Source of the DNA: an uncultured Nitrospirota bacterium
GTDB lineage: Bacteria > Nitrospirota > Nitrospiria > SBBL01 > CAZSHZ01
NCBI GenBank assembly: GCA_964606955.1
Contig: CAZSHZ010000170.1
Location: 1-40,183 of the forward strand
DNA: 40,183 bases
Reading direction: 5' to 3'
This document shows, piece by piece, positions 5,401 through 33,015 of this stretch (positions are counted from its first letter, which is position 1; every line of letters starts with the position of its first letter). The position numbers and the translations under genes were made by a program. The notes beneath the pieces were generated by a model that saw only the letters and a list, made by a program, of their open reading frames with translations, was not told the origin of the DNA and ran no database searches.

Positions 5401-5931
5401 CGGTCCGAAGATCTCGCGGTACTCCTGGGCTGCCGATAGAGCCGCCCCCGACGGTCCCCGGAGAAGAAGATAAGGAACCTCGCCGCGCAGACAGGCGGAG
5501 AGGGCGATCAAGCCGCCGCGGTGGCGGTGAAGAAGGTCCTTGTCGATTCTGGGTTTGTAGTAGTATCCCTCAAGATGCGCGGCGGAGACGAGCTGGACCA
5601 GATTGGAATAGCCTTTTTCATCCGCCGCCAGCAAGATCAGGTGATAGTAGGGGACCCCCGACCCGCCGCTCTCGTAGTCGTCGTCTCCTCCCGACCCTTC
5701 GCGATCGAACCGGCTCTTCGGCGCGAGATAGGCTTCGCATCCCAGGATCGGTTTGATCCCCGCCTTTTTCGCCTCCATGTAGAATTCAACGGCTCCGAAG
5801 AGATTTCCATGGTCGGTGATCGCCAGCGCGGGCATCCCCTGCTCCTTCGCCTCTGTGATCAGCCGTCCGATCTGATTGGCGCCGTCGAGGAGACTGTACT
5901 GGGTATGGACGTGGAGATGGACGAAATTCAT
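2437..5931 (-). CDS. dnaE: DNA polymerase III alpha subunit
   Basis: PHP-domain N-terminus MNFVHLHVHTQYSLLDG in a protein of about 1165 aa with the conserved polymerase core. The ATG at 5931 is preferred; an in-frame GTG at 5949 is the alternative. Confidence 0.95.
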   Translation of the reverse strand: MNFVHLHVHTQYSLLDGANQIGRLITEAKEQGMPALAITDHGNLFGAVEFYMEAKKAGIKPILGCEAYLAPKSRFDREGSGGDDDYESGGSGVPYYHLILLAADEKGYSNLVQLVSAAHLEGYYYKPRIDKDLLHRHRGGLIALSACLRGEVPYLLLRGPSGAALSAAQEYREIFGPDNFYLEVQDNGLEIQQRVNHELEEISRKTQIPLVATNDCHYLSPGDTRAHDTLLCIQTGKTVNDPRRMRFGTKELYFKDAQRMTAAFARLPKAISATLEIAQRCNVELDLGRLRLPHYPVPGGYTRESYLEELAGKGLADRMGTSSIPSVYRDRLDYELLVINTMGFAGYFLIVWDIIDFAKRRGIPVGPGRGSSAGSLVAYALRITEIDPITYDLLFERFLNPDRIAPPDIDMDFCQARREEVINYVTEKYGREHVAQITTFGRMKAKQAFRDVCRVLEIPYSEVDRVAKLIPGAIIEGDERKETTLGQALQMEPRLAEALAANPKMQEAFELAKGLEGQIRHASIHAGGIVISQEPLRDVIPLRLGEKGEVVTQYEMGSVEKVGLVKFDFLGLRNLTVIHRAVALINHNRSPEETLTLEKIRLDDPACYELISSGRTVGLFQLESQGMRELVQRYRPERFEDLIVILALYRPGPLDAGMVEEFVKRRRGEIAIKYELPQLEEILKTTLGIIVYQEQVMKIAQAAAGYTPGEADSLRKAMGKKKKEEILQQQETFVNRCVERRIPRGKAERLFEQVVTFGRYGFNRSHSTAYAMIAYQTAYLKAHHPREFFTALLSSEIGNDEKMIRYITDCREMSIPILPPDVNLSDSDFTLAPAGIRYGLLGIKGIGAAAIEAILAARESGSEVHPFVSLYDLCSRVGLQKVNRRAMEALIKAGAFDTFSHPRAALASALDEAMAVGAGMRSRVADHQMSIFGESQDGGNIPAIPEWEETLVSRYEKEVFGFPLTAHPLRRLATVLENLELNLIESLQEIPEGTEVRICGIVLSEKEMVTRKGDRMGVLRLQDLTGAVEVIVFPDLYRNASTLLLGDVPLVVHGTIDLIEKANGEKALKVKALKIQTVHEARPPRRPALLLVFGATPASVELLHSLSEVLSRFPGPIKVFLEVTGPAGPTRIMAGKNFCVAPVPELKSALFALLGAEAVQMIEA

Positions 5932-8844: not shown

Positions 8845-10101
8845 ATGAAACTCCTGGTGGTTGGGGGAGGGGGGCGCGAGCATGCGCTGATTTGGAAACT
8901 GCGCGCTTCCCGTCTGATAAAGAAGATCTACTGCGCCCCGGGAAACGGGGGGATCGGCCGGATCGCCCAGCGGGTCGCGCTGGACCCCTCAGACATTTCC
9001 GGGCTTGCCGCATTCGCGCGAAAAAATAGGATCGACCTGACCGTCGTCGGTCCGGAACTCCCTCTGTCGCTCGGAATCGTCGATGAGTTTGTCCGATTTG
9101 GTCTTTCGATCTTCGGCCCATCAAAACGGGCGGCGGAGATCGAGACAAGCAAGGCGTTTGCAAAGGAGTTTATGCTCCGGCATGAGATCCCCACCGCCGG
9201 GGCGAGGATCCTACCCGCCGACCAAGCGGCGGCGGAGGCCAAGCGGTGCCGGCTCCCGGTGGTCCTGAAGGCGGACGGGCTTGCCTCCGGAAAGGGGGTG
9301 ATCATCGCGAGGATCCGCGAAGAGGCGGCCGCCGGTGTGCAGGCGCTCCTTTCCCTCGGAAAATCCTCCTCCAAAATCCTCTTTGAGGAGATGCTGGAGG
9401 GGGAGGAGGCCTCGTTCCTTGTGCTCACCGACGGCAATAAGGTGCTCCCCCTTGCGGAGGCTCGCGACTACAAGAGGGTCGGGGAGAGCGATTCGGGACC
9501 GAACACCGGTGGAATGGGAGCCTATTCTCCGGTTCGTAAGATCCCTAAAAGCGTGCGGGATGAGGTGTTGGAGACGATCCTCCGTCCTGCGATCCGGGGT
9601 CTCGCCAAGGAGGGGAGGCCGTTTCTGGGGATCCTCTATGCCGGAGTGATGCTGACCTTTTCTGGGCCGAAAGTGCTGGAGTTCAACGCCCGCTTCGGGG
9701 ATCCGGAAACGCAAGTGATCCTCCCCCGCCTGGCAGGGGAGCTGGTCGAGCCTCTCGGCGCCTCTGCCGCCGGAAAACTCGGCGGAATAAGACTTCGATG
9801 GAAAAAGGAGACGGCCCTCTGCGTCGTGATCGCATCGGGCGGCTACCCGGGTCCGTTTGAGAAGGGCATTTCGATCCGAGGCCTTGCTGGATCCGGGCAA
9901 TTGTCGCAAGGGGATAAAGAGGCGCTTGTTTTTCATGCGGGAACGGAACTGGGGGAAACCGGGTGGAACACCAGCGGCGGGAGGGTTCTGGGGATTACCG
10001 TCCTGGGAGAAGGGATTCCGGCCGCCCGGGAGCGGGTTTACGCGGCCTGCAAACGGGTGGAGTTTTCTGGGATGCATTACCGGAGCGACATTGGAAAATA
10101 A
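8845..10101 (+). CDS. purD: Phosphoribosylamine-glycine ligase
   Basis: [20 protein letters not shown]-terminus and an ATP-grasp core ([23 protein letters not shown]). Confidence 0.96.
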
Positions 10102-10178
10102 AGCGGAAGGGGACAGGCGGGTGGGTGGGGGCGTGGGCGGAACGTCCGGGGTCCCCAAAGACCGCGTCTTTGGGGCAA
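10102..10178 (+). repeat. Repeat copy A (long form): G-tract module plus GGGGTCCCC-anchored 10-bp hairpin
   Basis: Starts immediately after the purD TAA. G-tracts span 10109-10137. GGGGT lies at 10148-10152. Stem CCCCAAAGAC (10153-10162), loop CGC, stem GTCTTTGGGG (10166-10175), perfectly complementary. The 5' module matches copy B at 36 of 40 hand-aligned positions. Confidence 0.8.
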
Positions 10179-10274
10179 TCAAAGCCTGACGCTCGCAGTA
10201 AGGATAGGGTAAATTGGCGGCCGCTGATCGCAGGCCTGCGGATTCCGCTGGTCATCGCCGGACTTGCCGTCTCA

Positions 10275-10847
10275 ATGGCGCTGGATGGGAGCGCTCGGGC
10301 GCTGGCGCGGGAGACGGATCTCTCTTCTCTGCATCCCATGGTCAGTGGGATGATCCGTGGAATCACCTTTCTGGGCGATTTTCCCCTGCTGATCAGCGTG
10401 TCGATTCTCCTCGCCGCATGGGGTTATTGGGTCCGTCATAGGGAGGGGGATCGCTGGTTTGATTTCGGATGGGGACTCTCCTTTTCTCTGGTCGTTGCGA
10501 GTGTCATCGTGAAGGTGTCCAAACACCTAATCGGACGGGAACGCCCCTTTCTCCTCCGCTCTCCCTACGTGGGGCCCGCGATGGCCGGACCGACATTGAT
10601 GGACGGGTACGACTCGTTTCCCTCCGGACATGCCGCCTCGGCATTCGTCGTGGCGGCTCTCCTGGCGGCGCGTTGGCCGTCTAGGAAGGGCTTTTTTTAT
10701 CTGATCGCCGTTCTGGTCGCTCTCTCCCGGCTCCTCCTTGATGTTCACTATCTTTCGGATATTCTTGCAGGCGGGATGATCGGATACTACACGGCCCGCG
10801 CCTATCTTGCTGCGGCCCGCCCCTCCGGAGAGCCCAAACCTTCTTGA
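10275..10847 (+). CDS. PAP2-family membrane phosphatase (lipid phosphate / undecaprenyl-PP / lipid A phosphatase family)
   Basis: All three PAP2 motifs are present: KHLIGRERP, PSGH, SRLLLDVHYLSD. Start set to the first ATG after purD (10275). The track's 9963 start overlaps purD and repeat copy A. Confidence 0.8.
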   Translation: MALDGSARALARETDLSSLHPMVSGMIRGITFLGDFPLLISVSILLAAWGYWVRHREGDRWFDFGWGLSFSLVVASVIVKVSKHLIGRERPFLLRSPYVGPAMAGPTLMDGYDSFPSGHAASAFVVAALLAARWPSRKGFFYLIAVLVALSRLLLDVHYLSDILAGGMIGYYTARAYLAAARPSGEPKPS

Positions 10848-10874
10848 CCCTTTCAATTTCCCTGTGATAGCGTC

Positions 10875-11414
10875 ATGAGGCTTATGGCCAAATCAAAGAG
10901 AAACCCTAAAGTTTCCCAGCCGAAAGTGGCGGTCGTGGTCGCCAGCGACTCCGATCTCCCTTTAATGGAACCGGCCTTTAAAATGCTGGCCGAGTTTCAG
11001 ATCCCGTTCCTCTCTACGCTTGCCTCCGCCCACCGCTCACCCGAACGAACCAGCCGAATCGTCCGGGAGGCCGAGGAGCGCGGCGTTTGCCTCTTCATCG
11101 CGGCGGCGGGAGGGGCGGCGCATCTTGCCGGCGTGATCGCGGCCCAGACGGATCGTCCGGTAATCGGAGTTCCGCTCGACACTTCCACGCTCTGTGGCCT
11201 CGATGCTCTCCTTGCCACGGTTCAGATGCCGGGGGGTGTGCCGGTCGCCACGATGGCGATCGGAAAGGCCGGAGCGAAGAACGCCGCGGTCCTAGCGGCG
11301 CGGATATTGGCTCTCTCCGATCCACAACTGGCTAGAAGAGTGGTTTCCTATAGAGCCGGTTTGGCGCGGGAGATTGAAGAGAAGGCCGCAAGGTATGAGA
11401 AGAATTTCCGTTGA
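10875..11414 (+). CDS. purE: N5-carboxyaminoimidazole ribonucleotide mutase
   Basis: KVAVVVASDSDLPLM...SAHRSPERT...AAGGAAHLAGV...PVIGVP, the characteristic PurE core. Alternative ATG at 10884. Confidence 0.93.
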   Translation: MRLMAKSKRNPKVSQPKVAVVVASDSDLPLMEPAFKMLAEFQIPFLSTLASAHRSPERTSRIVREAEERGVCLFIAAAGGAAHLAGVIAAQTDRPVIGVPLDTSTLCGLDALLATVQMPGGVPVATMAIGKAGAKNAAVLAARILALSDPQLARRVVSYRAGLAREIEEKAARYEKNFR

Positions 11415-12012
11415 CCCGACCGCCCCGGACGAAGCTGCGGTCCTGGAAACCGCTCAGCTGATCGCAAAAGGGGGGCTCGCAGTTATCCCAACCGACACGT
11501 TCTACGCCCTGGCGGGAAATCCCTTTGATCTAAAGGTTCTTGAGCGGATCTTCTCGGTAAAAGGCCGGCCGAAAGGCCGGCCGATCCTTCTTTTGATCGG
11601 AGAGGTGGGCGATCTATCAAAGATCGTCCCGGTCATCTCCGCGTTCGGGCGCCGGCTGATCGAACGGTTTTGGCCCGGACCCCTTACCCTGGTCTTCCCT
11701 GCCCCAGAGAATCTCCCTGCCGCCCTCACAGCCGGGACCGGCTCGATCGGAATCCGTCTTCCGGATTCTCCCTTTATCCGGGCAGTCTGCCGCCGCCTTG
11801 GGGGAGCGATTACGGGGACTTCGGCGAATCTGAGCGGAGAGAAGGAGTCGCTTACGGCCGAAGAGGCCGCGGGATCGTTGGGAGACCGGGTCGATCTGAT
11901 GGTGAACGGCGGCAGGGTGGGTGAGCCGGTCCCCTCAACCGTCGTTCGCGTGGTCGGCGAACGGATCGAGGTCTTGAGGGAGGGGAGGATTCCCCGTGCG
12001 GCTTTCAACTAA
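11395..12012 (+). CDS. tsaC: L-threonylcarbamoyladenylate synthase (YrdC/Sua5 domain)
   Basis: VIPTDTFYALAGNP and SVKGRPKGRPILLLI motifs, with a ...TSANLSGE tail. The ATG at 11395 is preferred over the TTG at 11374; it overlaps the purE end by 20 nt. Confidence 0.88.
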   Translation: MRRISVDPTAPDEAAVLETAQLIAKGGLAVIPTDTFYALAGNPFDLKVLERIFSVKGRPKGRPILLLIGEVGDLSKIVPVISAFGRRLIERFWPGPLTLVFPAPENLPAALTAGTGSIGIRLPDSPFIRAVCRRLGGAITGTSANLSGEKESLTAEEAAGSLGDRVDLMVNGGRVGEPVPSTVVRVVGERIEVLREGRIPRAAFN

Positions 12013-13402
12013 ACTCGTTCTGACGATGCTCGGCCTCCTCCTCCTCTCCCTGGGGGTCTCTTACCTCATCAACCTCCGGAGCGAGACGATCTTTCTGAAG
12101 AAGGTGCAGGATAACATCGGGGAGCTGTCGACCGCCATCCAGGTCTCCGTCGAGGAGTTGACGAGCACGGAGCGGACGAACGAGGCGCGGTTGGCGGATT
12201 ATGTCCGGCGGCTGAAAAGCAAGGGGGTCCAAGAGGTCTCGATCATCAATAATGAGGCGGAGATCCTTGCCTCCTCAAACCCCCGACGGGTCGGGGAGCG
12301 CCTTGATCCGAGGAAGAAGGATCTCTTCATTACGGCCCGCCTGGGCGAATTGCAGGGGGTTACGGAGCCCCAGCGGGAGTACAACCTTCTCGTTCCGATC
12401 GTGGTCGGAAACGAGCAGCGCGGATTCGTCCATATCATCATGCACCTAGATGATTATCAGAAACTTACCTCTTCGAATCTCCGAAGGAGACTGCTCACGA
12501 CCCTTGCGATCTTCTCTCTCGGCATCGGTGTTTCTATTTTCCTCTCGCTTAAATACACGCGGCCGATCGAGGAGGTTGCCCGAGCGGCAAAGCGGGTCGC
12601 GGCCGGAGATCTTTCCCGATCACTCCCGCAGCCGCTGGTCGTCGGCCGTCGAGATGAGATCGGTGAGCTCACCTCTTCGTTCAATGAAATGGTGGAGCGG
12701 CTGAGGGACCACCGTGAACTTCAGGAGCGGCTGCGGAAGGCGGAGCAGCTCTCAGCCCTTGGGCAGATGGCCTCCGGGATTGCCCACGAAATCCGGAATC
12801 CTCTCAATTTCATCAATCTTTCAATCGATCACATCGTCGCGAAGCGGAACGGTGTTGATCCCGCCGAGGTCGAAGAGTTGGTCCGGCAGATCAAAGCGGA
12901 GATCCACCGTCTCAACCAGATGGTGGAGAATTTCTTAAGATACGGGAAACCGCTCAAACTGAATTTAGTCCGCGTGGACCTCCGGCAGATCATCAATGAT
13001 GTCGTCGCCTTGGCGAGGCCGAAGGCGACCGAGCAGGGGGTCGGGATCGAGGTGGCCAACGGGAATCCCCTCCCGCTGGTGCGGGTCGATCCGGAACTGT
13101 TCAAGACCTGCCTGGTCAACGTGATCGGAAACGCGATTCAGGCCATGCCTTCCGGCGGACAACTCCGAATTGCCGCGGGGCAGCGGGGATCGACGGTCGA
13201 GGTCCTCTGCGCCGACAGCGGCTGCGGCATCGCTTCGGAGGATCTCGAAAAGATCTTCCAGCCCTATTTCACGACGAAAAAGTTGGGGATCGGACTGGGG
13301 CTTTCGTTCACGCGTCGGATTCTCGAGGAGCATGGGGGGTCGGTGCAGGTGGAGAGCTGCCTGCGGGAGGGGACGAAGGTGACGATGGCGGTGCCTCTAT
13401 GA
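11996..13402 (+). CDS. Sensor histidine kinase (two TM helices, extracytoplasmic sensor, HAMP, HisKA, HATPase)
   Basis: H-box SGIAHEIRNPLNFI, N-box VIGNAIQAM, G1 DSGCGI, G2 GIGLGLS. HAMP-like segment after the second TM helix (LLTTLAIFSLGIGVSIFLSL). GTG start. Confidence 0.9.
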   Translation: MRLSTKLVLTMLGLLLLSLGVSYLINLRSETIFLKKVQDNIGELSTAIQVSVEELTSTERTNEARLADYVRRLKSKGVQEVSIINNEAEILASSNPRRVGERLDPRKKDLFITARLGELQGVTEPQREYNLLVPIVVGNEQRGFVHIIMHLDDYQKLTSSNLRRRLLTTLAIFSLGIGVSIFLSLKYTRPIEEVARAAKRVAAGDLSRSLPQPLVVGRRDEIGELTSSFNEMVERLRDHRELQERLRKAEQLSALGQMASGIAHEIRNPLNFINLSIDHIVAKRNGVDPAEVEELVRQIKAEIHRLNQMVENFLRYGKPLKLNLVRVDLRQIINDVVALARPKATEQGVGIEVANGNPLPLVRVDPELFKTCLVNVIGNAIQAMPSGGQLRIAAGQRGSTVEVLCADSGCGIASEDLEKIFQPYFTTKKLGIGLGLSFTRRILEEHGGSVQVESCLREGTKVTMAVPL

Positions 13403-14793
13403 GCGCCGGGGCGGGCCGAACGGAAGAAAAGGTCCTGGTCGTCGACGACGAGGCGCCTCAGCGGGAGATCCTCAAGAAGATCCTCCAGTCCGAGGGGTAC
13501 TTGGTCTTGGGCGCCGGAAACGTCGCCTCGGCGCTTTGCCTCCTGAAGGAAGAAAAAATCGACCTCGTCATCACGGATTTGAAGATGCCCGATTCGGACG
13601 GGTTGTCTGCGGTCGACCGGATTCTCGGCGAGACCTCCGCCCCATGTATCATTATGACCGCCCACGGCTCGATCGATTCAGCCGTCGATGCGATGAAGAA
13701 GGGGGCGTTCGATTACCTGACCAAGCCGCTTGACCGCGAAGAACTGCTGGTCGCGGTGGCCCGGGGGCTTGAGAAGGTCCGGCTCATCGCGGAAAACCGG
13801 ATGCTGAAGAACCAGCTGCGCAAGCGTTTCTCGATCCACAACATCATCGGAATGCACCCTAAGATGCAGGAGATCTTCCGGACCCTCGAAAAGATCGCCC
13901 CCTCTTCCGCCACGATCCTCGTCCTCGGCGAGTCGGGCACCGGTAAGGAGCTGATCGCCCGGGCGATTCACTATAATAGCCCCCGCAAAGAGAAGCCGTT
14001 CCTTGCCATGAACTGCGCCGCAATTCCAGAGTCCCTCATCGAGTCGGAGCTGTTCGGACATGAGAGGGGCGCGTTCACGGGAGCCACGGACCGCTCCATC
14101 GGCCTGTTCGAGGCGGCGCAGGAGGGAACCCTCTTTCTCGATGAGATCGGGGACCTCTCCCTCCCCCTTCAGGCGAAAATTCTTCGGACGCTCCAGGAGC
14201 GGGAGATCCGCCGGATCGGCGGACGTGAGGAGATCAAGGTGGACGTCCGCGTCATCGCGGCAACCAATAAAGATCTTTTGGAAGAGATCAAGGAAGACCG
14301 GTTCCGCGAGGACCTCTACTACCGCCTGAACGTGGTCTCGCTTAGGATTCCATCCCTTTCTGAGCGGAGCACCGACATCCCCGATCTCGTCCGCCATTTC
14401 ATCCGGAAGTACCAGCGAAAGGGCAGCAGTGAGGTAAGGGGAGTCTCGCGGGAGGCGCTTCGGTTCCTCATGGAGTACTCCTGGCCGGGGAATGTCCGGC
14501 AACTCGAATCCGCAATCGAGCGGGCGATTCTCCTCTGCGCGGGAGAGGAGATCGGCGTTGAGGATCTTCCGAACGAGATCAGAAACCCTGCGTTGGGCGG
14601 GAAGATCGATTTCGAGATTCCCCCCGGTTTCTCGCTTGAAGAGTTTGAAAAAAATCTCCTGGTCAGCGCGCTGAGGAAAAACGACTGGGTGGTCAGCCGG
14701 GCCGCCAAGATGCTGGGGATTTCGTATCGAACCCTGCAGTATCGTCTTGAGAAATTTGCGATCCAGCGGACGGATGCGCCCTCACCAAATTAG
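13399..14793 (+). CDS. Sigma-54-dependent response regulator (NtrC/AtoC family: REC-AAA+-Fis HTH)
   Basis: REC domain (VLVVDDE...[11 protein letters not shown]), Walker A GESGTGKE, the sigma-54 contact loop ERGAFTGA, Walker B LFLDEIG, and a C-terminal [23 protein letters not shown] overlap with the kinase gene. Confidence 0.94.
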
Positions 14794-14875
14794 AGCGGAA
14801 GGGGACAAGTCGGGCGGGTAGGGGCGTGGGCGGCGCACGCGGGGTCCCCACCGGCTCTTCCGGTGGAGGGGGCAA
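14794..14875 (+). repeat. Repeat copy B (long form): G-tract module plus GGGGTCCCC-anchored hairpin
   Basis: Starts immediately after the regulator's TAG. G-tracts span 14801-14830. GGGGTCCCC lies at 14841-14849. Stem CCACCGG (14848-14854), loop CTCTT, stem CCGGTGG (14860-14866), extendable through a bulged A to CC/GG. Confidence 0.8.
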
Positions 14876-15012
14876 CTTGAGCCCCTGTAATGGTGCGGCG
14901 GATACACCAAAAGGAAGACCGGCAGTTCCTACGGGCCAATCTTCCTCTCCTTCAGAATAAAAATCGTTCGGGAAGTCGAGACCTTACACGAGAGGGCGGT
15001 TAGAGGCTCTTC

Positions 15013-15028
15013 GGGTATGGGCTTTGCA
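15013..15028 (+). promoter_or_regulatory. Candidate sigma-54 (-24/-12) promoter
   Basis: gGGtAtG-ggct-TTGCA has GG at 15014-15015 and GC at 15026-15027. Spacing is exactly that of TGGCAC-N5-TTGCA. The -12 element is perfect and the -24 element is partial. It lies about 50 nt upstream of the ATG at 15078 and directly downstream of a sigma-54 activator gene. Confidence 0.4.
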
Positions 15029-15077
15029 GTTCACGCCTGCCGCGTTTTTCGTTATTCACTCTCGCGAGGAGAATAGA

Positions 15078-15422
15078 ATGAAAAAGTGGTTTCTCGTGTT
15101 TGGGGTTCTTCTGATGACCGCGTCCATTGCGATGGCCCAGGAGGCGAAGGCTCCGCCAAAGAGTAAAATGGCGGTCATCATGGTCAAGGGAGAAGTGACC
15201 TCGGTCGACGCCGCAGGCAACACGGTCACGGTAAAGGGGAAGGACAAGGAAATTAAATTAAACGTGACCGATAAGACGAAGATCATGGCCGGAAAGGAGA
15301 AGAAGGGGTTGGCGGACATCAAGGTCGGCGACAAAGTCGCGGCCCGGGCGATGGAGGAGGATGGAAAGACCGTGGCGAAAGCGATCCGGATTAAAGGGGA
15401 GAGTAAGGCCGAGAAAAAGTAG
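15078..15422 (+). CDS. Small secreted Lys-rich protein (114 aa), uncharacterised
   Basis: RBS AGGAGA at 15067-15072. Signal peptide MKKWFLVFGVLLMTASIAMAQE. The mature part is beta-rich (VTSVDAAGNTVTVKGKDKEIKLNVTDKTKI...KVGDKVAARA). The track's upstream extension (15024) was discarded. Confidence 0.75.
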   Translation: MKKWFLVFGVLLMTASIAMAQEAKAPPKSKMAVIMVKGEVTSVDAAGNTVTVKGKDKEIKLNVTDKTKIMAGKEKKGLADIKVGDKVAARAMEEDGKTVAKAIRIKGESKAEKK

Positions 15423-18011: not shown

Positions 18012-18452
18012 GTGTTCGCCCCCGCGCTGGTGCCGCTTTTTTTCATTCTCTCGGCCTGCACGTTCCGAACGCCTCTTCTTGATCCCGAGACAAAAAAATT
18101 CGAGAAGGGGGAGGCAATCACGGTATCGGTCAGGCAGGTAACGACGGAGATCGGCGCGGAAGATAGGAAACGCTTCGGGGTTGACCTGTCAGCTTACTAT
18201 ACCCCGGTTTTAGTGACTCTCCTCAATCGGTCCGATTTTTCGGCTGCCCTCAATCCCTTCGAGGCCCGTCTGACGGTTGTTTCGCAAGAGGGGAAGGAAA
18301 GCATCTATCCGCCCGGGGGAAACGAGGAGGGGGTAATTATATTTAAGAAAATACACGCTACGGCCTGCGGGGAGGCCGTCCTTTCCCTGCCGAGGATCTC
18401 TGTTTTAAATCAGGAAAAAGAGTTCACTTTCGGGTTTTCATGCCGAAAGTGA
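18012..18452 (+). CDS. Hypothetical lipoprotein
   Basis: Lipobox FILSA-C in (M)FAPALVPLFFILSAC. An in-frame GTG at 18012 lies just outside rsmD. The track's 17607 start and the ATG at 17943 overlap rsmD on the opposite strand. Start uncertain. Confidence 0.5.
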   Translation: MFAPALVPLFFILSACTFRTPLLDPETKKFEKGEAITVSVRQVTTEIGAEDRKRFGVDLSAYYTPVLVTLLNRSDFSAALNPFEARLTVVSQEGKESIYPPGGNEEGVIIFKKIHATACGEAVLSLPRISVLNQEKEFTFGFSCRK

Positions 18453-18473
18453 ACGTCGACGAATGGTTGGCCT

Positions 18474-18650
18474 TCAGTGGGCTTTTTCTTGCGCGGGCTG
18501 AAGGGCTGCGCCGATGCTTCTCTGCCGGTTGGTTAAAATGGTGGCGTCGACGAGCGCTCCGCAGTTAATGCATTTGTACGCGTGAAAGATGATAAAAAAA
18601 TCGGTCATCCGTTCCCGATACATCAACCCCTTACATTTAGGGCACTGCAT
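18474..18650 (-). CDS. 58-aa zinc-ribbon protein (CPKC...CINC), not in the supplied ORF track
   Basis: Minus-strand ATG at 18650 is preceded by GGAGGG with a 5-nt spacer. Translation: MQCPKCKGLMYRERMTDFFIIFHAYKCINCGALVDATILTNRQRSIGAALQPAQEKAH, with the stop at 18476-18474. A near-consensus sigma-54 promoter sits just upstream. Confidence 0.65.
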   Translation of the reverse strand: MQCPKCKGLMYRERMTDFFIIFHAYKCINCGALVDATILTNRQRSIGAALQPAQEKAH

Positions 18651-18697
18651 GACACCCTCCTTTTCTCTGCTTCTCTGCTTTTCACGCCCCCTTATCC

Positions 18698-18713
18698 TGC
18701 AACGTGTGTGCCC
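18698..18713 (-). promoter_or_regulatory. Near-consensus sigma-54 (-24/-12) promoter reading into the zinc-ribbon micro-gene
   Basis: The minus strand reads gGGCAC-acacg-TTGCA. That is 5/6 for the -24 element, a perfect -12 element and exact N5 spacing. The GC dinucleotide lies about 50 nt upstream of the ATG at 18650. Confidence 0.6.
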
Positions 18714-18836
18714 TCGTTTTTTTTAAACAGTTCATTGTTTTTACAGATATTTCCGATCGGTTCGTCCTCGTTGCTCTTACCTGTGGTTAGGGGCCTCTGA
18801 CGTTTTTCGGCATTTTGTATGGGCCTGCAGATTAAT

Positions 18837-19544
18837 ATGGGCCTTCAGAATATTAAAGAGTGGCCCGAGCAGGAGAGGCCGAGGGAGCGTCTCTTCTTAA
18901 GTGGACCGGAGAGTCTCTCGGACGGCGAGCTCCTGGCGATCCTACTTCGGACCGGCTCGCGCGGGAAGAACGCCGTTGATCTCGGACGATATCTCCTGTC
19001 GCGGATGGCCGATCTCCGTTCCCTTGGGAGGGCGACTCCGGTGGAACTCGCCTCCATTCCCGGAGTCGGCCGTGCGAGGGCCGCTCAGATCCTCGCGGCA
19101 GCAGAACTCGGCCGCAGGATCGGCTCGCTTCCCATCTCTCCCGGGGAGCCGGCCCGGACCAGCGGTGACGTCTTCCGCCATTTCCGACCGCTGTTTGCCG
19201 GGAAGAAGGCGGAGGAGTTTCACGTCCTGCTGCTGGACACGCGACACCGCCTGATCCGGACTGTTCCGATCTCTAAAGGAAGCCTCTCCGCCAGCGTCGT
19301 CCATCCGCGGGAGGTCTTCCTTGCGGCGATTCGCGAATCGGCGGCTGCGATGATTCTCATCCATAACCATCCGAGCGGCGAACCTACCCCCAGCCCGGAA
19401 GATCGGCGGTTGACCGAACGGCTCGCGCAGGCGGGCGAGATTCTCGGGGTCCCTGTTTTAGACCATGTCGTTGTCGGCGAGGATTCGTACTATTCGTTTG
19501 CAGATCATAAGGAGATCGATTTGACAGTGAGGAGGACTCTATGA
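18837..19544 (+). CDS. radC: RadC-like JAB/MPN domain protein
   Basis: N-terminus MGLQNIKEWPEQERPRERL, HhH-like segment ELLAILLRTGSRGKNAVDL, and JAMM motif LIHNHPSGEPTPSPED. An upstream in-frame ATG at 18819 arises from an 18-nt tandem duplication of the start region. Confidence 0.9.
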   Translation: MGLQNIKEWPEQERPRERLFLSGPESLSDGELLAILLRTGSRGKNAVDLGRYLLSRMADLRSLGRATPVELASIPGVGRARAAQILAAAELGRRIGSLPISPGEPARTSGDVFRHFRPLFAGKKAEEFHVLLLDTRHRLIRTVPISKGSLSASVVHPREVFLAAIRESAAAMILIHNHPSGEPTPSPEDRRLTERLAQAGEILGVPVLDHVVVGEDSYYSFADHKEIDLTVRRTL

Positions 19545-19729
19545 ACCCCCTGCTTTCCCTCTGGCTTCTTGTCGCGGTTGCGATGGGACTTGTGATGCTC
19601 CTCTTCTCCATCAGCGACCGTTACATCGCCGTCATCGGGAACTTCTGGTTCATCATCGCAATCCTGATCGCGGGCTGGCTCCTCTTCGGATTTATCGGCT
19701 GGCTCTCCAAACGAGCTAAAAAGATCTAG
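19541..19729 (+). CDS. Small two-helix membrane protein (62 aa)
   Basis: ATGA overlap with radC and RBS GGAGGA at 19530-19535. Two hydrophobic helices (LLSLWLLVAVAMGLVMLLF and FWFIIAILIAGWLLFGFIGWL) and a basic C-terminus. Confidence 0.6.
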   Translation: MNPLLSLWLLVAVAMGLVMLLFSISDRYIAVIGNFWFIIAILIAGWLLFGFIGWLSKRAKKI

Positions 19730-19780
19730 CCCGCCGGTCGTCCGCCACCCTCTTTTCTCCACAACTCTTTGATTTTTCTG

Positions 19781-19810
19781 TTTACTTTCGATTTTTAAAA
19801 GTGTTACTAT
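19781..19810 (+). promoter_or_regulatory. Putative sigma-70 promoter for the bamA array (-35 TTTACT, 18-nt spacer, extended -10 TGtTACTAT)
   Basis: TTTACT at 19781-19786 and TACTAT at 19805-19810, preceded by TG. It sits in the only AT-rich gap before bamA. The ATG at 19821 has no SD sequence. Confidence 0.3.
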
Positions 19811-19820
19811 CTCTGACTTA

Positions 19821-22091
19821 ATGGCCAGGGTCCTCCTCGTCCTCGTCGGCCTTCCCTGGCTGCTCTTCTTTTTCTCGGAGGCTTTGGGGGAGGAGAGACC
19901 GATCATGGTCAAAATGATAGATGTCGCGGGGGCCCGCCGAATCGATCCCGGGACGGTCCGCTCCCGGATCAAAAGCCGAGAGGGGGGGAGATTTTCGGTC
20001 GAAACGGTCCGGGAAGATATCGCGGCGCTCTATTCGACCGGATATTTCCAAAGGGTAGAGGTCGAGTCGGAAGGCTTTGAGGGGGGGGTCCGGCTCACCT
20101 ACCGAGTCGAAGAGAGGCCGTTTCTAATCGATATTCAATTCGAGGGGAATACGAGCATTACTAAGGAGACCCTCTCCGATAAAATTCTCTTCAAGAGCAA
20201 TCGCTTTTTGGATGATCTGAAGGTGAAGGAGGAGGCGGAGAAGATTCGAAAAATGTATGAGGACGACGGGTTTTATTCCGCCGGCGTCACTCCGGTCGTC
20301 CGCCGCTTGACGGAGGGTAGGGCGACGCTGGTCTTTGTGATCCGCGAGGGGGAGCGCGCGTACGTCAAACGGATCGACTTCGAAGGAAACCGGGCTTTAA
20401 GCCGGCGGGACCTGAAGAAGTCGCTTTCCACCTCCGAATATTTCTGGTTGACCTCCTGGCTGACGGAATCAGGGAGATTTAAGAAGGAGCAGGTCGAGGG
20501 GGATGCGGAGCGGCTCCGCGAGGTCTATCTGGACAGTGGTTACCTTCAGGTCCAAGTCGGAGCCGGGCGGGTGACCCTTGCGGACGACAAGAGATGGTTT
20601 TTTCTTTCCTTTCCGATCGTCGAAGGGCCGCAGTTCGCGGTTCAGAAGATCTCATTCTCGGGAAACCGGCTGTTCACGGACGCAGAGATCCGATTGATGC
20701 TGATCCTGAAGGAGGGGGAGGAGTTTTCGCGGGCGAAGCTCAGACGAGACATTCAAGAGGTCATCGACCGGTATGGCGATCGGGGGTATGCGTTCGCCTC
20801 TGTCGACCCCCAGATCACCCCCGACGAAAGGGAGCGGGTCGCGGACGTCAAACTTTTTGTAAGCGAAGGGGAGCAGGTGACGGTCCGCCATATCAATATC
20901 AGCGGAAACGACAAGACGCGGGACAAGGTGATCCGCCGCGAGGTTCGTCTGTCCGAGCAGGAGCTCTGGAACACCAGTCTCCTCCGTCGGAGTTTTCAAC
21001 GGTTGAACAACCTCAACTTCTTCGAGACGATCGATATGACGCCCCGGAGCGTCGGCCCGGGCGAGGTCGACTTGAATATCCGGGTGAAGGAGAAGCCGAC
21101 CGGTTCGTTCTCCCTGGGAGGGGGATACTCCTCCATTGACCGGTTCATGATCCTGACCCAACTCTCCCAGGGGAATCTCTTCGGCCGGGGAGAGCTGCTG
21201 CGCGCCCGCACGGAGTTCGGCGCGAGGCGAAAGGATTTCACACTGACGTTTCGAGAGCCCTATCTCTTTGATTACGAGGTCTCGGCCACCACGGACCTTT
21301 TCAATAACGTGCGGAGTTTCGACAGCTACAAGGAGCACCGGGTGGGAGGCGGTCTCGCCCTGGGAAAACAGTTCACCGAGTATGTCTCAGGGTCGGTGAC
21401 CTACACCCTTGAGTCCTTGAAAATCTTTGAGGTCGATTTCGCGCGGGCGCCGGAGATTGCGATCCGCCAGGAGGCGCGGGGGAAAACGATTACCAGTTCG
21501 CTGGGATTTTCCCTTGCGCGGGACACCCGCGATTTCTTTTTCGACCCGAGCCGGGGATCACGATATTCGGCGTCCATCGAGTTAGCCGGAACCGTCCTAG
21601 GCGGGGATAACGACTACTACCGGACGATCGGAGACGCGTCGAAATATTTCCCCCTCTGGTGGGATCACGTCGGAGTGCTGCATGCGCGGATCGGATACGC
21701 TGAGGCCCTCTTAAGCCAGGAGCTCCCGATCGGGGAGCGCTTCTTCGTTGGCGGGATCAACACCGTCCGAGGCTTCAATTTCGGCCGGGCGGGCCCACAG
21801 TCGACGACGGGGCAGATCCTCGGCGGGAACAAAGAGCTCTTCTTCAATGCCGAATATCTGTTCCCCATCGTCCGAGAGGCGAAGCTCAAAGGGGTGCTCT
21901 TCGCGGATGCGGGGCGCGCATTTGATGACCCGGAGCGGATCGACCTGGGCGACCTTCGGCAGAGTTTCGGCGGAGGGATCCGCTGGATCACCCCGATCGG
22001 ACCGCTTCGGCTTGAGTACGGGAGAAAGATTCATCCAAAAGAGGGGGAGAGTGTAGGTGAGTTGGAGTTCTCCATTGGGACGCTCTTTTAG
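19821..22091 (+). CDS. bamA: Outer membrane protein assembly factor BamA (Omp85)
   Basis: Signal peptide, repeated POTRA-type modules, an Omp85 barrel with VRGF and related motifs, and a C-terminal ...EFSIGTLF. Confidence 0.95.
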   Translation: MARVLLVLVGLPWLLFFFSEALGEERPIMVKMIDVAGARRIDPGTVRSRIKSREGGRFSVETVREDIAALYSTGYFQRVEVESEGFEGGVRLTYRVEERPFLIDIQFEGNTSITKETLSDKILFKSNRFLDDLKVKEEAEKIRKMYEDDGFYSAGVTPVVRRLTEGRATLVFVIREGERAYVKRIDFEGNRALSRRDLKKSLSTSEYFWLTSWLTESGRFKKEQVEGDAERLREVYLDSGYLQVQVGAGRVTLADDKRWFFLSFPIVEGPQFAVQKISFSGNRLFTDAEIRLMLILKEGEEFSRAKLRRDIQEVIDRYGDRGYAFASVDPQITPDERERVADVKLFVSEGEQVTVRHINISGNDKTRDKVIRREVRLSEQELWNTSLLRRSFQRLNNLNFFETIDMTPRSVGPGEVDLNIRVKEKPTGSFSLGGGYSSIDRFMILTQLSQGNLFGRGELLRARTEFGARRKDFTLTFREPYLFDYEVSATTDLFNNVRSFDSYKEHRVGGGLALGKQFTEYVSGSVTYTLESLKIFEVDFARAPEIAIRQEARGKTITSSLGFSLARDTRDFFFDPSRGSRYSASIELAGTVLGGDNDYYRTIGDASKYFPLWWDHVGVLHARIGYAEALLSQELPIGERFFVGGINTVRGFNFGRAGPQSTTGQILGGNKELFFNAEYLFPIVREAKLKGVLFADAGRAFDDPERIDLGDLRQSFGGGIRWITPIGPLRLEYGRKIHPKEGESVGELEFSIGTLF

Positions 22092-22104
22092 ATTGCCTAT
22101 CGGT

Positions 22105-22145
22105 CGCGCCGTCCGGGGTCCCCAAAAGCCCCGCTTTTGGGGTGG
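22105..22145 (+). repeat. Repeat copy C (short form) in the bamA-skp spacer
   Basis: GCGCCGTCCGGGGT, then stem CCCCAAAAGC (22120-22129), loop CCC, stem GCTTTTGGGG (22133-22142), perfectly complementary. Confidence 0.75.
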
Positions 22146-22176
22146 ATGTATAGACCGGCGCGTCATCGGAGGAACG

Positions 22177-22707
22177 ATGAAGATCACGGGTTCGCTGGCC
22201 TTGGCGCTTTTTCTTATCCCTGCCTTCGGGGCGTTGACCGGAGCCGCCGAGCTGAAAATCGGCGTGGTCGATGCGCAGCGGGTGCTGGATTCCTCGAAAG
22301 AGGGGAAACGGGTGAAGGCCTCCATGGAGGAGTTCGTCAAAAGCCGCCAGAAGATTATTGACCTGGAAGAGGACGAGTTGAAGAAGGCAGAGGAGGAGCT
22401 CTCTCGGCAGTCGTCGGTCCTTTCCGCCGAGGCGCGGAGGGTAAAACAGGACGAATTTCAGAAGAAACTCATTGAGTACCAGAGGCGGGCGGCGGAACTG
22501 AACAAGGAGGTCCAAGGGAAGCGACACGACATCCTAAGGGGCTTCAATGAACGGGTGGAGGCGGCGGTCAAGGAGATCGCGGAGAAGGAGGGATACACCC
22601 TGGTCTTCGACAGGAACAGCGACGGCGGTGCGGTGGTCTATGCGAAAGAGAGCCTCGATCTGACCCCGCGGGTAATCGAATTAGTGGACCGGTCGCCTCG
22701 ACCGTGA
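22177..22707 (+). CDS. skp: Periplasmic chaperone Skp/OmpH
   Basis: RBS GGAGGA at 22168-22173. Signal peptide MKITGSLALALFLIPAFGALTGA. KIGVVDAQRVL followed by a coiled-coil Lys/Glu-rich body. Canonical position after bamA. Confidence 0.9.
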   Translation: MKITGSLALALFLIPAFGALTGAAELKIGVVDAQRVLDSSKEGKRVKASMEEFVKSRQKIIDLEEDELKKAEEELSRQSSVLSAEARRVKQDEFQKKLIEYQRRAAELNKEVQGKRHDILRGFNERVEAAVKEIAEKEGYTLVFDRNSDGGAVVYAKESLDLTPRVIELVDRSPRP

Positions 22708-23804
22708 AAAAGGGAGTGGCAACGAAGAGCCGTTCCAGCTTTACGCTTGCGGATCTGGCCCGTCTTGTCGGGGGAGAATTGATCGGGGACTCCTCGATTG
22801 AAATTTCCGGGATCGCGCCGATCACCTCGGCGCGGTCAGGCGAGGTCACCTTTTTGGCGCATCCTAGGTACGTTCCGCTCTTGAAGTCTACGGCGGCCTC
22901 CGCCGTGCTCCTCCCCCGCGCAGAGGCTTTAGCGTACGTCAACGGAAAGGGGGAGGATCCGGCGGTCATCTCGGTCGATCATCCCTACCTCGCTGTCATA
23001 TGTTTAATCGAACTCTTTTACCCGGCTCGCCGTCCGGAGCCGGGAATTCATCCGAAGGCCCAGGTCGATCGGACCGCCAGGATCGCTCCGGATGTCTCAG
23101 TCGGCCCGTTCGCGGTGATCGAGGGAGGGGTGACGCTGGACGCGGGCGTCGTCGTCGGAGCGGGGACCTTTATCGGAAGAGACAGCCGGATCGGCGAGGC
23201 GACGCATCTTTACCCTAACGTTACGATCCGGGAGGGGGCTATCGTCGGGAAGCGGGTGATTATCCACAGCGGGACGGTCGTCGGGAGCGATGGATTCGGT
23301 TTCATTCCCATCGGCGGGAGTCACCGAAAGATTCCGCAGGTCGGTATCGTGGAAATCGGTGATGACGTTGAGCTGGGTGCGAATGTGACCGTGGACCGTG
23401 CGACGCTCGGCCGGACGATCATCGGGCGCGGCACCAAGGTCGACAATCTCGTCCAGATCGCGCATAACGTCACGATCGGAGAGGACTGCATTCTCGTCGC
23501 GCAGGTCGGCATCTCGGGAAGCAGCAAGATCGGACGCTCGGTGACGCTTGCCGGGCAGGTCGGGGTGGTGGGGCATGTCGAGGTGGGGAACGGGGTCACC
23601 GCCGCGGCACGCGCGGGGATTTCGAAGGATATTCCCGACGGAGCCGTGGTCGGAGGGGCCCCGGCTCGGCCGCATCGCGAATGGCTGAAGAGTGAGGCGG
23701 CGCTCCGCTCGCTTCCCGAACTGATCCGGCGGGTCAAGGAGCTCGAAGCACAAATCGGGCGCCTGTCGACCGGAGGGCAGGGGGAAGGGGAGGGATCTCG
23801 GTGA
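22704..23804 (+). CDS. lpxD: UDP-3-O-acylglucosamine N-acyltransferase
   Basis: N-terminus FTLADLARLVGGELIGD, a long hexapeptide-repeat (left-handed beta-helix) region, and a C-terminal helix. GTGA overlap with skp. Confidence 0.94.
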   Translation: MKKGVATKSRSSFTLADLARLVGGELIGDSSIEISGIAPITSARSGEVTFLAHPRYVPLLKSTAASAVLLPRAEALAYVNGKGEDPAVISVDHPYLAVICLIELFYPARRPEPGIHPKAQVDRTARIAPDVSVGPFAVIEGGVTLDAGVVVGAGTFIGRDSRIGEATHLYPNVTIREGAIVGKRVIIHSGTVVGSDGFGFIPIGGSHRKIPQVGIVEIGDDVELGANVTVDRATLGRTIIGRGTKVDNLVQIAHNVTIGEDCILVAQVGISGSSKIGRSVTLAGQVGVVGHVEVGNGVTAAARAGISKDIPDGAVVGGAPARPHREWLKSEAALRSLPELIRRVKELEAQIGRLSTGGQGEGEGSR

Positions 23805-24262
23805 TCATCGAGGGGGCCGAGATCGCCTCGATCCTCCCGCACCGCTACCCATTTCTCCTGGTCGATCGGGTCCTCGAGATGGAGAGCGGAAAGCGGATCA
23901 CGGCGATCAAGAACGTGACCTATAACGAGCCTTTTTTTGCCGGCCACTTCCCCGGTAACCCGATCATGCCCGGCGTTCTGATCATCGAGGCGATGGCGCA
24001 AGCGGGAGGGATTCTCGCGATCCGTTCCAGCAAGAACCCCGAGGCGATGCGGCAGGTCTTCTTCACCGGGATCGAGAAGGCGAGGTTTCGAAGGCCGGTG
24101 ATCCCCGGGGACCAGCTGCGGATCGTTCTGGAGGTGATCGGACAGCGGGAGCCGTTTTGGAAGATGCGCGCGGAGGCTTTTGTCGGGACGCAGAAGATCG
24201 CAGAGGCGGTCCTTTCCGCGATGGTGGGAAAGAGGGTTGCAGAACCCCAGGAGGAGCCGTGA
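23801..24262 (+). CDS. fabZ: 3-hydroxyacyl-ACP dehydratase
   Basis: [14 protein letters not shown] and [23 protein letters not shown]. Confidence 0.96.
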
Positions 24263-25053
24263 ATGTAGAGAAGACGGTGATCGATCCGACCGCAGTGATC
24301 CATCCGAAGGCGGAGATTGAGCCGGGCGTCGCCGTCGGGCCCTACGCGGTTGTCGGCGAGCATCTGAAGATCGGGAAAGGGACGACGATCGGGGCCCACG
24401 CCGTTCTCTCGGGATGGACCGAGATCGGCGAGGAGTGCCGGATTTTCCCCTTCGCCTCGATCGGCGAGCCGCCTCAGGATCTCCGCTATCGGGACGAAGA
24501 GACCCGTCTTATCATCGGCAGAAACAACGTGATCCGCGAGTTCGTCACGATCCACCGGGGAACCCCGAAGGGACGAGGGGAGACCGTCATCGGAGACGAC
24601 GGTTACTTCATGGCCTACGTGCATATTGCCCATGACTGCGTAATCGGCGATCGGGTTGTGATGGCCAACAACGCCTCTCTTGCCGGCCATATCACGATCG
24701 GGGAGGGGGCGATTGTTGGAGGCTTGACCGGTATCCATCAGTTCGTCCGGATCGGGAGATTCGCGATGGTCGGGGGCTGTTCCGGGATCTCCCAGGACGT
24801 GCCCCCTTTTATTTTGGCGTCCGGCGCCCGCGCCGGGATCGTCGGCCTGAACCTGGTCGGTCTGAAACGTCAAGGATTTTCCGACGAGAGAATAACGATC
24901 CTAAAGCAATGCTATAAAATTCTTTTCCGCTCCAAACTGACGCTGCGGGCCGCGCTGGAGCGATTGCGGCTTTCGCCGTCGCCCGACGTGCGGGAGATGG
25001 TGGAGTTCATCGAGGGATCCCAGAGAGGGATCTTGCGGGAGCGCCGCCGGTGA
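24259..25053 (+). CDS. lpxA: UDP-N-acetylglucosamine O-acyltransferase
   Basis: GTGA overlap with fab[14 protein letters not shown] followed by hexapeptide repeats, and the C-terminal helical domain ([10 protein letters not shown]...). The track's 24157 start lies inside fabZ. Confidence 0.94.
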
Positions 25054-26918: not shown

Positions 26919-26923
26919 CGTCT

Positions 26924-29829: not shown

Positions 29830-29830
29830 T

Positions 29831-32133: not shown

Positions 32134-32134
32134 G

Positions 32135-33007: not shown

Positions 33008-33015
33008 ATCTGAAG

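Follow-up and report, generated by a model that had tools for sequence, protein, structure and literature searches.

The stretch of DNA analysed in this study (positions 1 to 40,183 of contig CAZSHZ010000170.1, assembly GCA_964606955.1; hereafter, the window) is 40,183 bp in length and has a G+C content of 61%. It carries purH-purD, a PAP2 gene, purE, and genes for a sensor kinase and an NtrC-type regulator, followed by a long lipid A and lipopolysaccharide cluster with bamA, ompH, lpxD, fabZ, lpxA, lpxI, lpxB, msbA, kdtA, lpxK and glycosyltransferases. Set among these genes, which are ordinary, are five copies of a short hairpin headed by GGGGT, and here we report their structure, their distribution in other bacteria and their probable nature.

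In a search of 5.8 billion proteins the nearest LpxD, same species aside, was only 54% identical, and for this reason the host is placed, as judged from its proteins, in a deep-branching, Nitrospirota-like lineage without a close relative on record. Among metagenome contigs the best BamA identity was 60%, in a partial match, and the named best matches of the lineage were Manganitrophaceae and Nitrospira metagenome-assembled genomes (MAGs). A record of the same species, contig CAMTYH010000019.1 of GCA_947085945.1 (locus L127), is 99.9% identical to positions 18303-34262 of the window (about 16 kb).

The GGGGT-headed hairpins of the window

All five copies are on the plus strand. Copy A (10148-10175), in the spacer between purD and the PAP2 gene, is composed of the head GGGGT (10148-10152) and the hairpin CCCCAAAGAC-CGC-GTCTTTGGGG (10153-10175). 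Copy B (14841-14872), recognized by folding and by pattern, joins the same head to the bulged variant CCCCACCGG-CTCTT-CCGGTGG(A)GGGGG. Copy C (22115-22142; GGGGT followed by CCCCAAAAGC-CCC-GCTTTTGGGG) occupies part of the 90-nt spacer between bamA and ompH, copy D (29776-29803; GGGGT followed by CCCCGGCGGC-TTG-GCCGCTGGGG) lies within the translated tail of MsbA, and copy E (39957-39984; GGGGT followed by CCCCGAGCGC-TGT-GCGCTCGGGG) is found inside coding sequence. Copies C and D are unchanged in the same-species contig. The copies follow each other at distances of 4.7-10.2 kb in the same orientation, which is a roughly even spacing of about one per 8 kb, and A, B and C are placed 0-50 nt past stop codons. 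An earlier sequence-only reading of this DNA had described the five hairpins, and its coordinates and sequences for them were correct.

The exact sequence GGGGTCCCC was found six times in the window (five on the plus strand and one on the minus strand) against 1.24 expected in dinucleotide-preserving shuffles. When the search was extended to GGGGTCCCC-N13-19-GGGG, the five occurrences already described were recovered, all on the plus strand, against 0.04 expected, and none of 100 shuffles reached five. The five copies are therefore a genuine, non-chance repeat family. The sixth GGGGTCCCC (5650-5658, minus strand) is inside dnaE, has no hairpin and looks like a chance occurrence. No further convincing members were found in the window in a search for GGGG-type heads joined to any perfect hairpin of at least 6 bp.

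Folded as RNA and as DNA, copies A, C, D and E form a 10-bp stem, with one G-T pair in D, and a 3-nt loop closed by C-G. Copy B is a variant with a bulged stem of 7-9 bp, in which a 7-bp perfect core is combined with one bulged A and a loop of 5 nt, and it folds no more stably than shuffles do. The single architecture first attributed to the whole set is thus valid for four copies and has to be relaxed for B. The RNA hairpins have energies of -16 to -28 kcal/mol with modest z-scores (-0.1 to -2.3), while under DNA parameters four of the five had stronger z-scores, reaching -3.4. None of the five hairpins is followed by a U-tract, the tails being CAATCA, CAACTT, TGGATG, CGGAGC and CAGGAG, and scans of 9900-15200 and 39300-40183 revealed no terminator-like or sigma-70-like site at A, B or E; the TATAAT located 3' of copy E belongs to the coding sequence. 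This agrees with the initial view that the hairpins are not canonical intrinsic terminators. Rfam 15 gave nothing at any copy in the window, either at the gathering threshold or at E<=5.

Copies D and E within reading frames

Copy D is inside the msbA frame and is read within the 23 codons by which MsbA is extended at its C-terminus, the extension finishing with FSTPKVQEGVPGGLAAGAEPSGAQD before the stop. Solved MsbA chains ceased to align at residue 154-156 of a 179-residue C-terminal query, several of them within one residue of their own C-terminus. The copy is 24 nt before the extended stop codon, and kdtA starts 2 nt past that stop.

The open reading frame (ORF) that contains copy E starts at the ATG at 39462, which overlaps the preceding stop as ATGA, and continues uninterrupted to the end of the window and beyond. 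From its sequence it is assigned to the WaaG-like family-4 (GT4) glycosyltransferases. WaaG structures aligned to residues 3-138 and 185-239 of the ORF, leaving about 37 surplus residues between them. When 36 residues (SSASEASERGRLQPALPVEGATPGVPERCALGAGAP) were deleted, the Pfam Glyco_transf_4 match, which had been split into two stretches (68.5 bits), became a single one (76.7 bits) spanning profile positions 2-170 of 170. Given that the deletion merges the Pfam match and that the WaaG structures flank the surplus, the 108 nt (36 codons) at 39888-39995 on the plus strand are regarded as an in-frame, mid-gene insertion comprising copy E and a degenerate hairpin upstream of it. The proposal that copies A to D sit at gene 3' ends is consequently sound for A, B and C, just past their stops; D is inside the msbA frame, and E is in the middle of a gene.

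Mosaic modules around copies A, B and E

Copies A and B are each preceded on the plus strand by a G-rich module of about 46 nt (10102-10147 and 14794-14840, respectively). The two modules are 81% identical in a stretch of 43 nt, GGGGTCCCC included, and the module of A includes GGGGACAG and a canonical G-quadruplex motif. Both begin at the first base 3' of a stop codon, with TAA followed by AGCGGAAGGGGACA at 10102 (purD) and TAG followed by AGCGGAAGGGGACA at 14794 (the NtrC-like gene), and A and B are parts of a longer composite repeat of about 75 nt. The sense-strand G-quadruplex motifs (GGGG..GGG.GGG.GGGGG), located at 10109-10131 and 14801-24, each directly past the stop codon, are two of only six canonical ones in the window. 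A short-read (Logan) contig with an identical purD (L001, 1304-1333) breaks off within the G-rich module of copy A, which is what a module repeated in the genome and interrupting assemblies would produce.

Copies B and E have in common CCGGTGGAGGGGGC and GAGCCCCTRTAATSGTG, and on the 3' side of both lies GAGCCCCT(G/A)TAAT(G/C)GTG. This motif appears after copy B as GAGCCCCTGTAATGGTG (14879-14895, plus strand), where it could be either an element end or a shared target site, and after copy E as GAGCCCCTATAATCGTG (39988-40004, plus strand), in which the 3' part codes for IIVAN, native to the glycosyltransferase. The degenerate hairpin just upstream of copy E is of B type (CTCCAGCCGG-CTTT-GCCGGTGGAG, then GGGGC; 39921-39944, plus strand). 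The units of the window are thus joined with other modules, namely the G-quadruplex-prone module and the B-type hairpin, into mosaic repeats similar to bacterial interspersed mosaic elements (BIMEs). Additionally, an A+T island with the pattern T(R)TAAT-N1-2-GTG(G) is present within 5-30 nt 3' of B, D and E (14879-14895, 29815-29835 and 39988-40004). After E and D it is native coding or stop-start sequence, and it may reflect a target-site preference or a coincidence.

The same head and foot across bacterial phyla

One genome per species (596 Gb) was scanned with the pattern GGGGTCCCCAAA-N7-11-TTTGGGG (A/C type), in which 19 bases are specified, the cross-phylum sample being therefore seeded with one stem type. 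The matches listed came from at least 114 tiles, at least 77 assemblies and at least 12 phyla. Their labels include Clostridia and other Bacillota (among them the isolate Brevibacillus thermoruber), Nitrospirota, Bacteroidota, Sphingomonadales (among them Sphingomonas glacialis), Eremiobacterota, Dormibacterota, Chlamydiota, Campylobacterota, Acidobacteriota, Saccharibacteria, Levybacteria and others. It must be noted that, by a rough estimate, 19 specified bases would give a few tens of matches by chance, so that the match count alone is weak evidence. The matches are nevertheless considered a real family since the free stem depths co-vary, the flanking bases are kept without having been imposed, and further stems share the same head.

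In this regard, 99 distinct cores among the matches listed were 84-93% paired at stem depths 8-11, which are free in the pattern, with AT, TA, GC and CG all used. Pairs were counted by anchoring on the foot because the MAFFT alignment made for a covariance model mis-registered the 3' arms. The observation that stems change and yet stay complementary therefore holds far outside the window. As for the selection on structure that had been deduced from it, the compensated stems are real, but they are expected of any palindromic repeat family and by themselves are no proof of selection on an RNA structure. Hairpin length was narrow across the matches listed (21-28 nt, mode 25). Taking one instance per assembly, position -1 was C in 53 of 77, position +1 was T in 37 and A in 25, and position +2 was G in 46 of 77. 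The same tiles contained about 25 more copies in which the GGGGT head was kept and the stem was a different one (GAAGAC..., GGCAAG..., ATAAAA...). The family consensus is C-GGGGT-[CCCC-stem-loop-stem-GGGG]-T/A-G-G.

Many genomes harboured several copies, one Chlamydiota MAG (CAVSSM01) at least 18 within the tiles fetched. The further copies that had been anticipated beyond the window do exist in other genomes, in at least 77 assemblies, in both orientations and with compensated stems. Identical 29-30-mers were shared between different phyla among the matches listed, which is less surprising than it looks given the 19 imposed positions. The motif was matched only twice in viral contigs, and a plasmid BLAST with a Sphingomonad copy gave only an unrelated terminator-like match. 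Rfam had no match at the motif in 18 related loci or in the Clostridial composite described below, and a full-text literature search (motif string; papers on repetitive extragenic palindromes and on TIRYT) revealed no description of a GGGGT-tagged family.

The Clostridia loci have a conserved element of about 90 nt whose 5' module is the GGGGT hairpin. It consists of AGAGGAGGAGCAACGGAGCGA, a second hairpin with co-varying arms and a final ...AGCGAA (L030 1551-1640, L002, L015, L026, L027, L033, L038, L047, L056, L061 and L105); an unannotated RNA and a composite repeat are both conceivable. In two Sphingomonadales genomes, Citromicrobium and Novosphingobium MAGs (L078 5445-5474 and L115 2324-2353), the hairpin is found at the same place, 5-6 nt upstream of the start codon of an ORF beginning MAGHSKFK, which from reading the sequence we take to be YebC-like. 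This shared site suggests an old insertion or a conserved leader.

Insertion events and tolerated sites

A clean 36-nt indel, corresponding exactly to the unit, distinguishes two orthologous loci of related Nitrospirota MAGs (L004 and L082) with flanks 95-98% identical. In L085, perfect AACGC direct repeats enclose a second unit, CCGGGGTCCCC...GGGGTGG, and AACGC is single in L005 and L010. Filled and empty pairs were also found in L043 versus L045 and L039 versus L094, with GCCGA/GCCGT. Paralogous copies with and without the unit were found as well (L055), three paralogous repeats of a closed Manganitrophaceae chromosome (OY970371.1) differing by its presence, and direct tandem arrays occur with periods of 33, 39, 42 and 45 nt. 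The units are thus discrete insertions of about 31-45 nt, which an orthologous or paralogous site may have or lack. Direct repeats of 5 nt accompany two to three events only, without a consistent register; given that the boundaries are not uniform and that the target-duplication statistics are confounded by the tandem arrays, no transposition chemistry is claimed.

With respect to position, one copy was found between fusA and tuf (L030), and others at tRNA genes, either 3 nt upstream in sense or 5-9 nt downstream in antisense. In the RNase P RNA of an Eremiobacterota MAG (L012 3780-4242), the P12 helix contains an insertion of about 96 nt that holds two family hairpins, of which the second, GGGGG-CCCCGGCGGC-TTT-GCCGCTGGGG, is nearly identical to copy D of the window. 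In-frame copies were observed in mfd, with the UvrB-interaction and RID domains on either side, in the C-terminal tail of rpoN and in a giant restriction-modification/helicase ORF. Among the matches listed, and with crude gene calls, 17 intergenic copies were sense to both neighbours, 12 antisense to both, 10 in convergent and 5 in divergent spacers. The units land wherever they are tolerated, that is, past stop codons, in intercistronic and tRNA spacers, in protein loops and tails, where they keep the frame, and in the variable P12 of RNase P RNA.

A BamA-based scan of metagenome contigs provided nine relatives with 35-60% identity, and the five with flanks of at least about 10 kb were 35-56% identical. 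None of the nine contained a GGGG(N)CCCC-hairpin, and about 120 kb of syntenic loci from relatives had no copies. A conserved cis-element was ruled out by this absence and by the mixed orientation to neighbouring genes elsewhere.

The same-species contig and other features of the window

At its beginning (1-993), the same-species contig L127 carries a tnpB gene of the insertion sequence (IS) family IS200/IS605, with OrfB_IS605 and Cas12f1-like TNB domains, which is absent from the window. About 15 nt separate the end of the gene from the point at which homology to the window starts again (approximately 18272/18273); the window has unrelated sequence in place of the gene, and the element is accordingly classed, on the comparison of these two assemblies, as a strain-level presence/absence in the species. 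Its right end in L127 is a hairpin, CGGGC-GTTA-GCCCG, and has no GGGGT motif. In a search for further contigs of the same MAG, no identical copies of this tnpB were found. Because a MAG of the same species carries an IS200/IS605-family tnpB, hairpin-dependent single-strand transposons circulate in the lineage, a context that favours the reading given below. A second small indel polymorphism between the two assemblies consists of about 59-68 nt extra in L127 (1037-1092, against 18303-18314 of the window), with a direct repeat ATCC(C)GCCC at its borders.

Within the lipid A cluster, the ORF at 25050-26918 (622 residues) is an unusual fusion of LpxI N- and C-terminal domains with a GFO/IDH/MocA oxidoreductase domain, and it is called identically in the public MAG.

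Nature of the repeats

Repetitive extragenic palindromic (REP) elements are short palindromes with a conserved unpaired tag at the 5' foot, which are multi-copy, located mostly after genes and mosaic (PMC3733652, PMC6006769). We consider it probable that the five copies are REP-like insertion elements acting at the DNA level, mobilised in trans on single-stranded DNA, and that any effects on RNA are secondary. The grounds for this are that they are a tagged palindrome in multiple copies, mostly after genes and sometimes in frame, mosaic in their arrangement and present or absent between close relatives. The C-G-closed triloops and the stronger DNA z-scores of four of the five copies fit a hairpin that acts as DNA. 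A mobile hairpin, REP-like or like a MITE (a miniature transposable element with inverted repeats), had been one of the roles initially put forward, and it is the one favoured by the filled and empty sites, the tandem arrays, the in-frame copies, the syntenic absence and the presence of both orientations elsewhere.

The unit is formed by an unpaired conserved head, (C)GGGGT, directly 5' of a hairpin of 21-28 nt, whose foot is always CCCC/GGGG, often with T-G-G after it. In the proposed scheme, the units would spread at the DNA level, with the hairpin forming on single-stranded DNA, for instance on the lagging-strand template, and a short guide sequence at its 5' foot would be recognised by an enzyme acting in trans, as is the case for HUH/Y1 enzymes. 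Among these, RAYT (REP-associated tyrosine transposase)/TnpA-REP and the TnpA of IS200/IS605 read GTAG-tagged REPs and IS ends. Once transcribed, the hairpins may incidentally alter mRNA decay or translation, for example by 3' protection, but this would not be the reason for their presence. It is plausible that the invariant GGGGUCCCC base, earlier offered as an anchor for protein recognition, is such a site, more likely on single-stranded DNA than on RNA.

Several observations weigh against a REP-like nature. The head GGGGT is neither GT[AG]G nor CGTC, the copies occur singly or as direct tandems and not as inverted dimers, and head and foot recur across phyla whereas REPs are normally species-specific. 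All five copies in the window are sense to transcription, as an RNA role would also predict. The enzyme expected by this reading did not appear: the window has no Y1/HUH gene, and in the eight-kb loci around the motif (at least 114 listed) no Y1 gene adjoins it. An HUH...Y regular expression recovered one Y1-like ORF (L030), whose flank is a GTAG-type hairpin and not the GGGGT motif. All-against-all clustering of 2,781 ORFs from the loci listed revealed no recurring protein near the copies, only generic families such as ABC ATPases, short-chain dehydrogenases/reductases (SDRs) and two-component proteins. Furthermore, the boundaries of the insertions are inconsistent, with some 5-nt direct repeats, one inverted 5-mer (TCGCA/TGCGA) and some replaced flanks; flanking direct 5-mers numbered 60 against 13 expected, a figure without a fixed register and inflated by the tandem arrays. 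Orientation with respect to local GC skew was unbiased (48 to 65 among the matches listed). Finally, there is no filled and empty pair for the copies of the window itself, the nearest relatives being about 54% identical in LpxD and thus too distant for an empty-site comparison.

Of the alternatives, an RNA-level cis-element would be a U-tract-less terminator, a block to 3' exonucleases that stabilises the upstream mRNA, or an RNase or protein site anchored on GGGGUCCCC. It would account for the sense orientation of the five copies, for the position of A, B and C shortly past stop codons, for the stability of the RNA hairpins and for the excess of convergent over divergent spacers reported above, which resembles that of REPs acting in 3' untranslated regions. 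We nevertheless hold it to be unlikely. Copy E is amid an intact WaaG-like ORF and copy D is translated, which argues against a terminator as the primary role; at D, termination would moreover be harmful as the extended msbA stop almost abuts the kdtA start codon. The U-tract is lacking, the RNA z-scores are modest next to the DNA ones, and the relatives have nothing at the syntenic sites. In other genomes, 12 of the copies listed are antisense to both neighbours against 17 in sense, and others are antisense just 3' of tRNA genes or inside RNase P RNA. The suggestion of a terminator or 3'-end mRNA stabiliser as the main function is for these reasons not supported.

A second alternative is that the copies are remnants or solo ends of a larger mobile element, that is, end hairpins of an IS200/IS605-type element or of a palindrome-associated transposable element (PATE), or scars of site-specific recombination, and not units mobile on their own; for this we see little probability. 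The layout of a guide plus a hairpin is indeed that of IS200/IS605 ends, which Y1 HUH transposases read on single-stranded DNA (PMC3201880), and the inverted repeats around the genes of the REP-less Y1 subclass 2.1 (TIRYT) have the consensus GGGG[AT][CG]A[CG] (PMC3733652, PMC6006769), which fits GGGGTCCC at 7 of 8 positions and GGGGACAG in the module of copy A at 8 of 8. A tnpB element is also polymorphic in the species, and in Clostridia the hairpin belongs to a larger two-hairpin element. Against this, the right-end hairpin of the tnpB element of L127 is a different one, no transposase-sized ORF lies between paired copies, which enclose housekeeping genes when about 2.9 kb apart, and the clean 36-42-nt indels indicate that the single hairpin unit itself comes and goes.

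Least probable is a double-stranded DNA binding or structural site for a host protein (a dimeric regulator, a nucleoid protein, or a cruciform or gyrase/IHF-type site, as has been proposed for BIMEs) kept for chromosome organisation, since an operator, however well it matches two overlapping palindromes (GGGGTCCCC; CCCC...GGGG) with invariant outer half-sites, variable centre, conserved flanking bases and even spacing in the window, needs no self-complementary centre such as that found at depths 8-11 with many pair types, the copies in coding regions and RNase P RNA and the tandem identical units fit insertion better, and we know of no cognate protein for GGGGT palindromes across 12 phyla.

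The usual view of REP-type repeats is that of passengers confined to a lineage and dependent on a single domesticated transposase. If the REP-like reading is true, the same head and foot in distant phyla would point to a mobilising activity on single-stranded DNA that has been broadly transferred or has repeatedly evolved, a view to which the insertions in RNase P RNA and, in frame, in essential genes (waaG-like, msbA, mfd, rpoN) also contribute; a substrate would then be offered for the Y1/HUH subclasses currently without one. On the practical side, the units break short-read assemblies and produce spurious ORFs and protein extensions in annotation, and they could serve as strain markers in uncultured lineages such as the deep-branching Nitrospirota-like host.

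Comparison with known systems

Intrinsic (Rho-independent) terminators are likewise G+C-clamped hairpins past stop codons, as in three of the five copies, but here there is no U-tract, two copies are translated, GGGGT is kept upstream of the stem and both orientations occur in other genomes. Cut-and-paste MITEs have terminal inverted repeats at the very ends and a target-site duplication of fixed length; in the present units the inverted arms are internal to the GGGGT head and the TGG tail, and 5-nt direct repeats accompany two to three events. Rickettsia palindromic elements (RPEs) are also inserted in frame into protein and RNA genes without destroying them; they are, however, 100-150 bp long, restricted to Rickettsiales and unrelated in sequence to the GGGGT units. 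Some RPEs correspond to CGTC-type REPs (PMC3733652).

The subterminal hairpins of IS608 and other IS200/IS605 elements are similar in size and have a 4-nt guide at the 5' foot (PMC3201880), and the IS family is present in the species. These elements have two different hairpins, at the left and right ends, flanking genes, with cleavage sites at defined distances, whereas here a single hairpin makes up an insertion of 31-45 nt, and the local tnpB element has an end hairpin that differs from the GGGGT unit. IS200/IS605 elements and PATEs insert 3' of a fixed tetra- or pentanucleotide without duplication; the flanks of the units vary (direct 5-mers AACGC and GCCGA/GCCGT, the inverted 5-mer TCGCA/TGCGA, or replaced flanks). 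Left and right ends bracket those elements, in contrast to indels of 36-42 nt with one hairpin and housekeeping genes between paired copies.

The closest likeness is to REPs and BIMEs (Di Nocera et al. 2013, PMC3733652; Quentin et al. 2018, PMC6006769). Both they and the present units are palindromes of 20-40 nt with a short unpaired tag at the 5' foot, multi-copy, mostly extragenic and biased to the 3' sides of genes, with occasional in-frame copies that include DNA-repair genes; both are mosaic with other modules, and stems and loops vary within the family. The differences are the following. The REP tag is GT[AG]G or CGTC, while GGGGT is present in all five copies and in every related copy found here, with a foot of four C-G pairs. 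REPs often form inverted dimers (REPIN/BIME), and among the present singletons and direct tandems there is one adjacent inverted pair (L008). They are flanked by a cognate RAYT, for which no counterpart was found in the window or at the eight-kb loci. REP families are usually species- or genus-specific, whereas the GGGGT tag and foot extend over at least 12 phyla. As for copy number, REPs typically have more than 100 copies per genome, predominantly extragenic; the window has 5 copies in 40 kb, two of the five inside ORFs.

The different tag, the lack of the inverted-dimer habit and the absence of a RAYT from the window and the loci listed set these repeats apart from both known REP superfamilies. 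We tentatively raise the possibility, which we regard as rather doubtful at present, that GGGGT hairpins are a third, undescribed superfamily of tagged palindromic repeats besides the GTAG and CGTC REPs, extending across at least 12 phyla and mobilised by a widely transferred single-strand DNA enzyme. Its span, no less tentative, would include lineages of the candidate phyla radiation, Chlamydiota, Nitrospirota, Eremiobacterota, Clostridia, Bacteroidota and Sphingomonadales. By the fit to its inverted-repeat consensus, the REP-less TIRYT subclass would be one candidate enzyme for such a superfamily.

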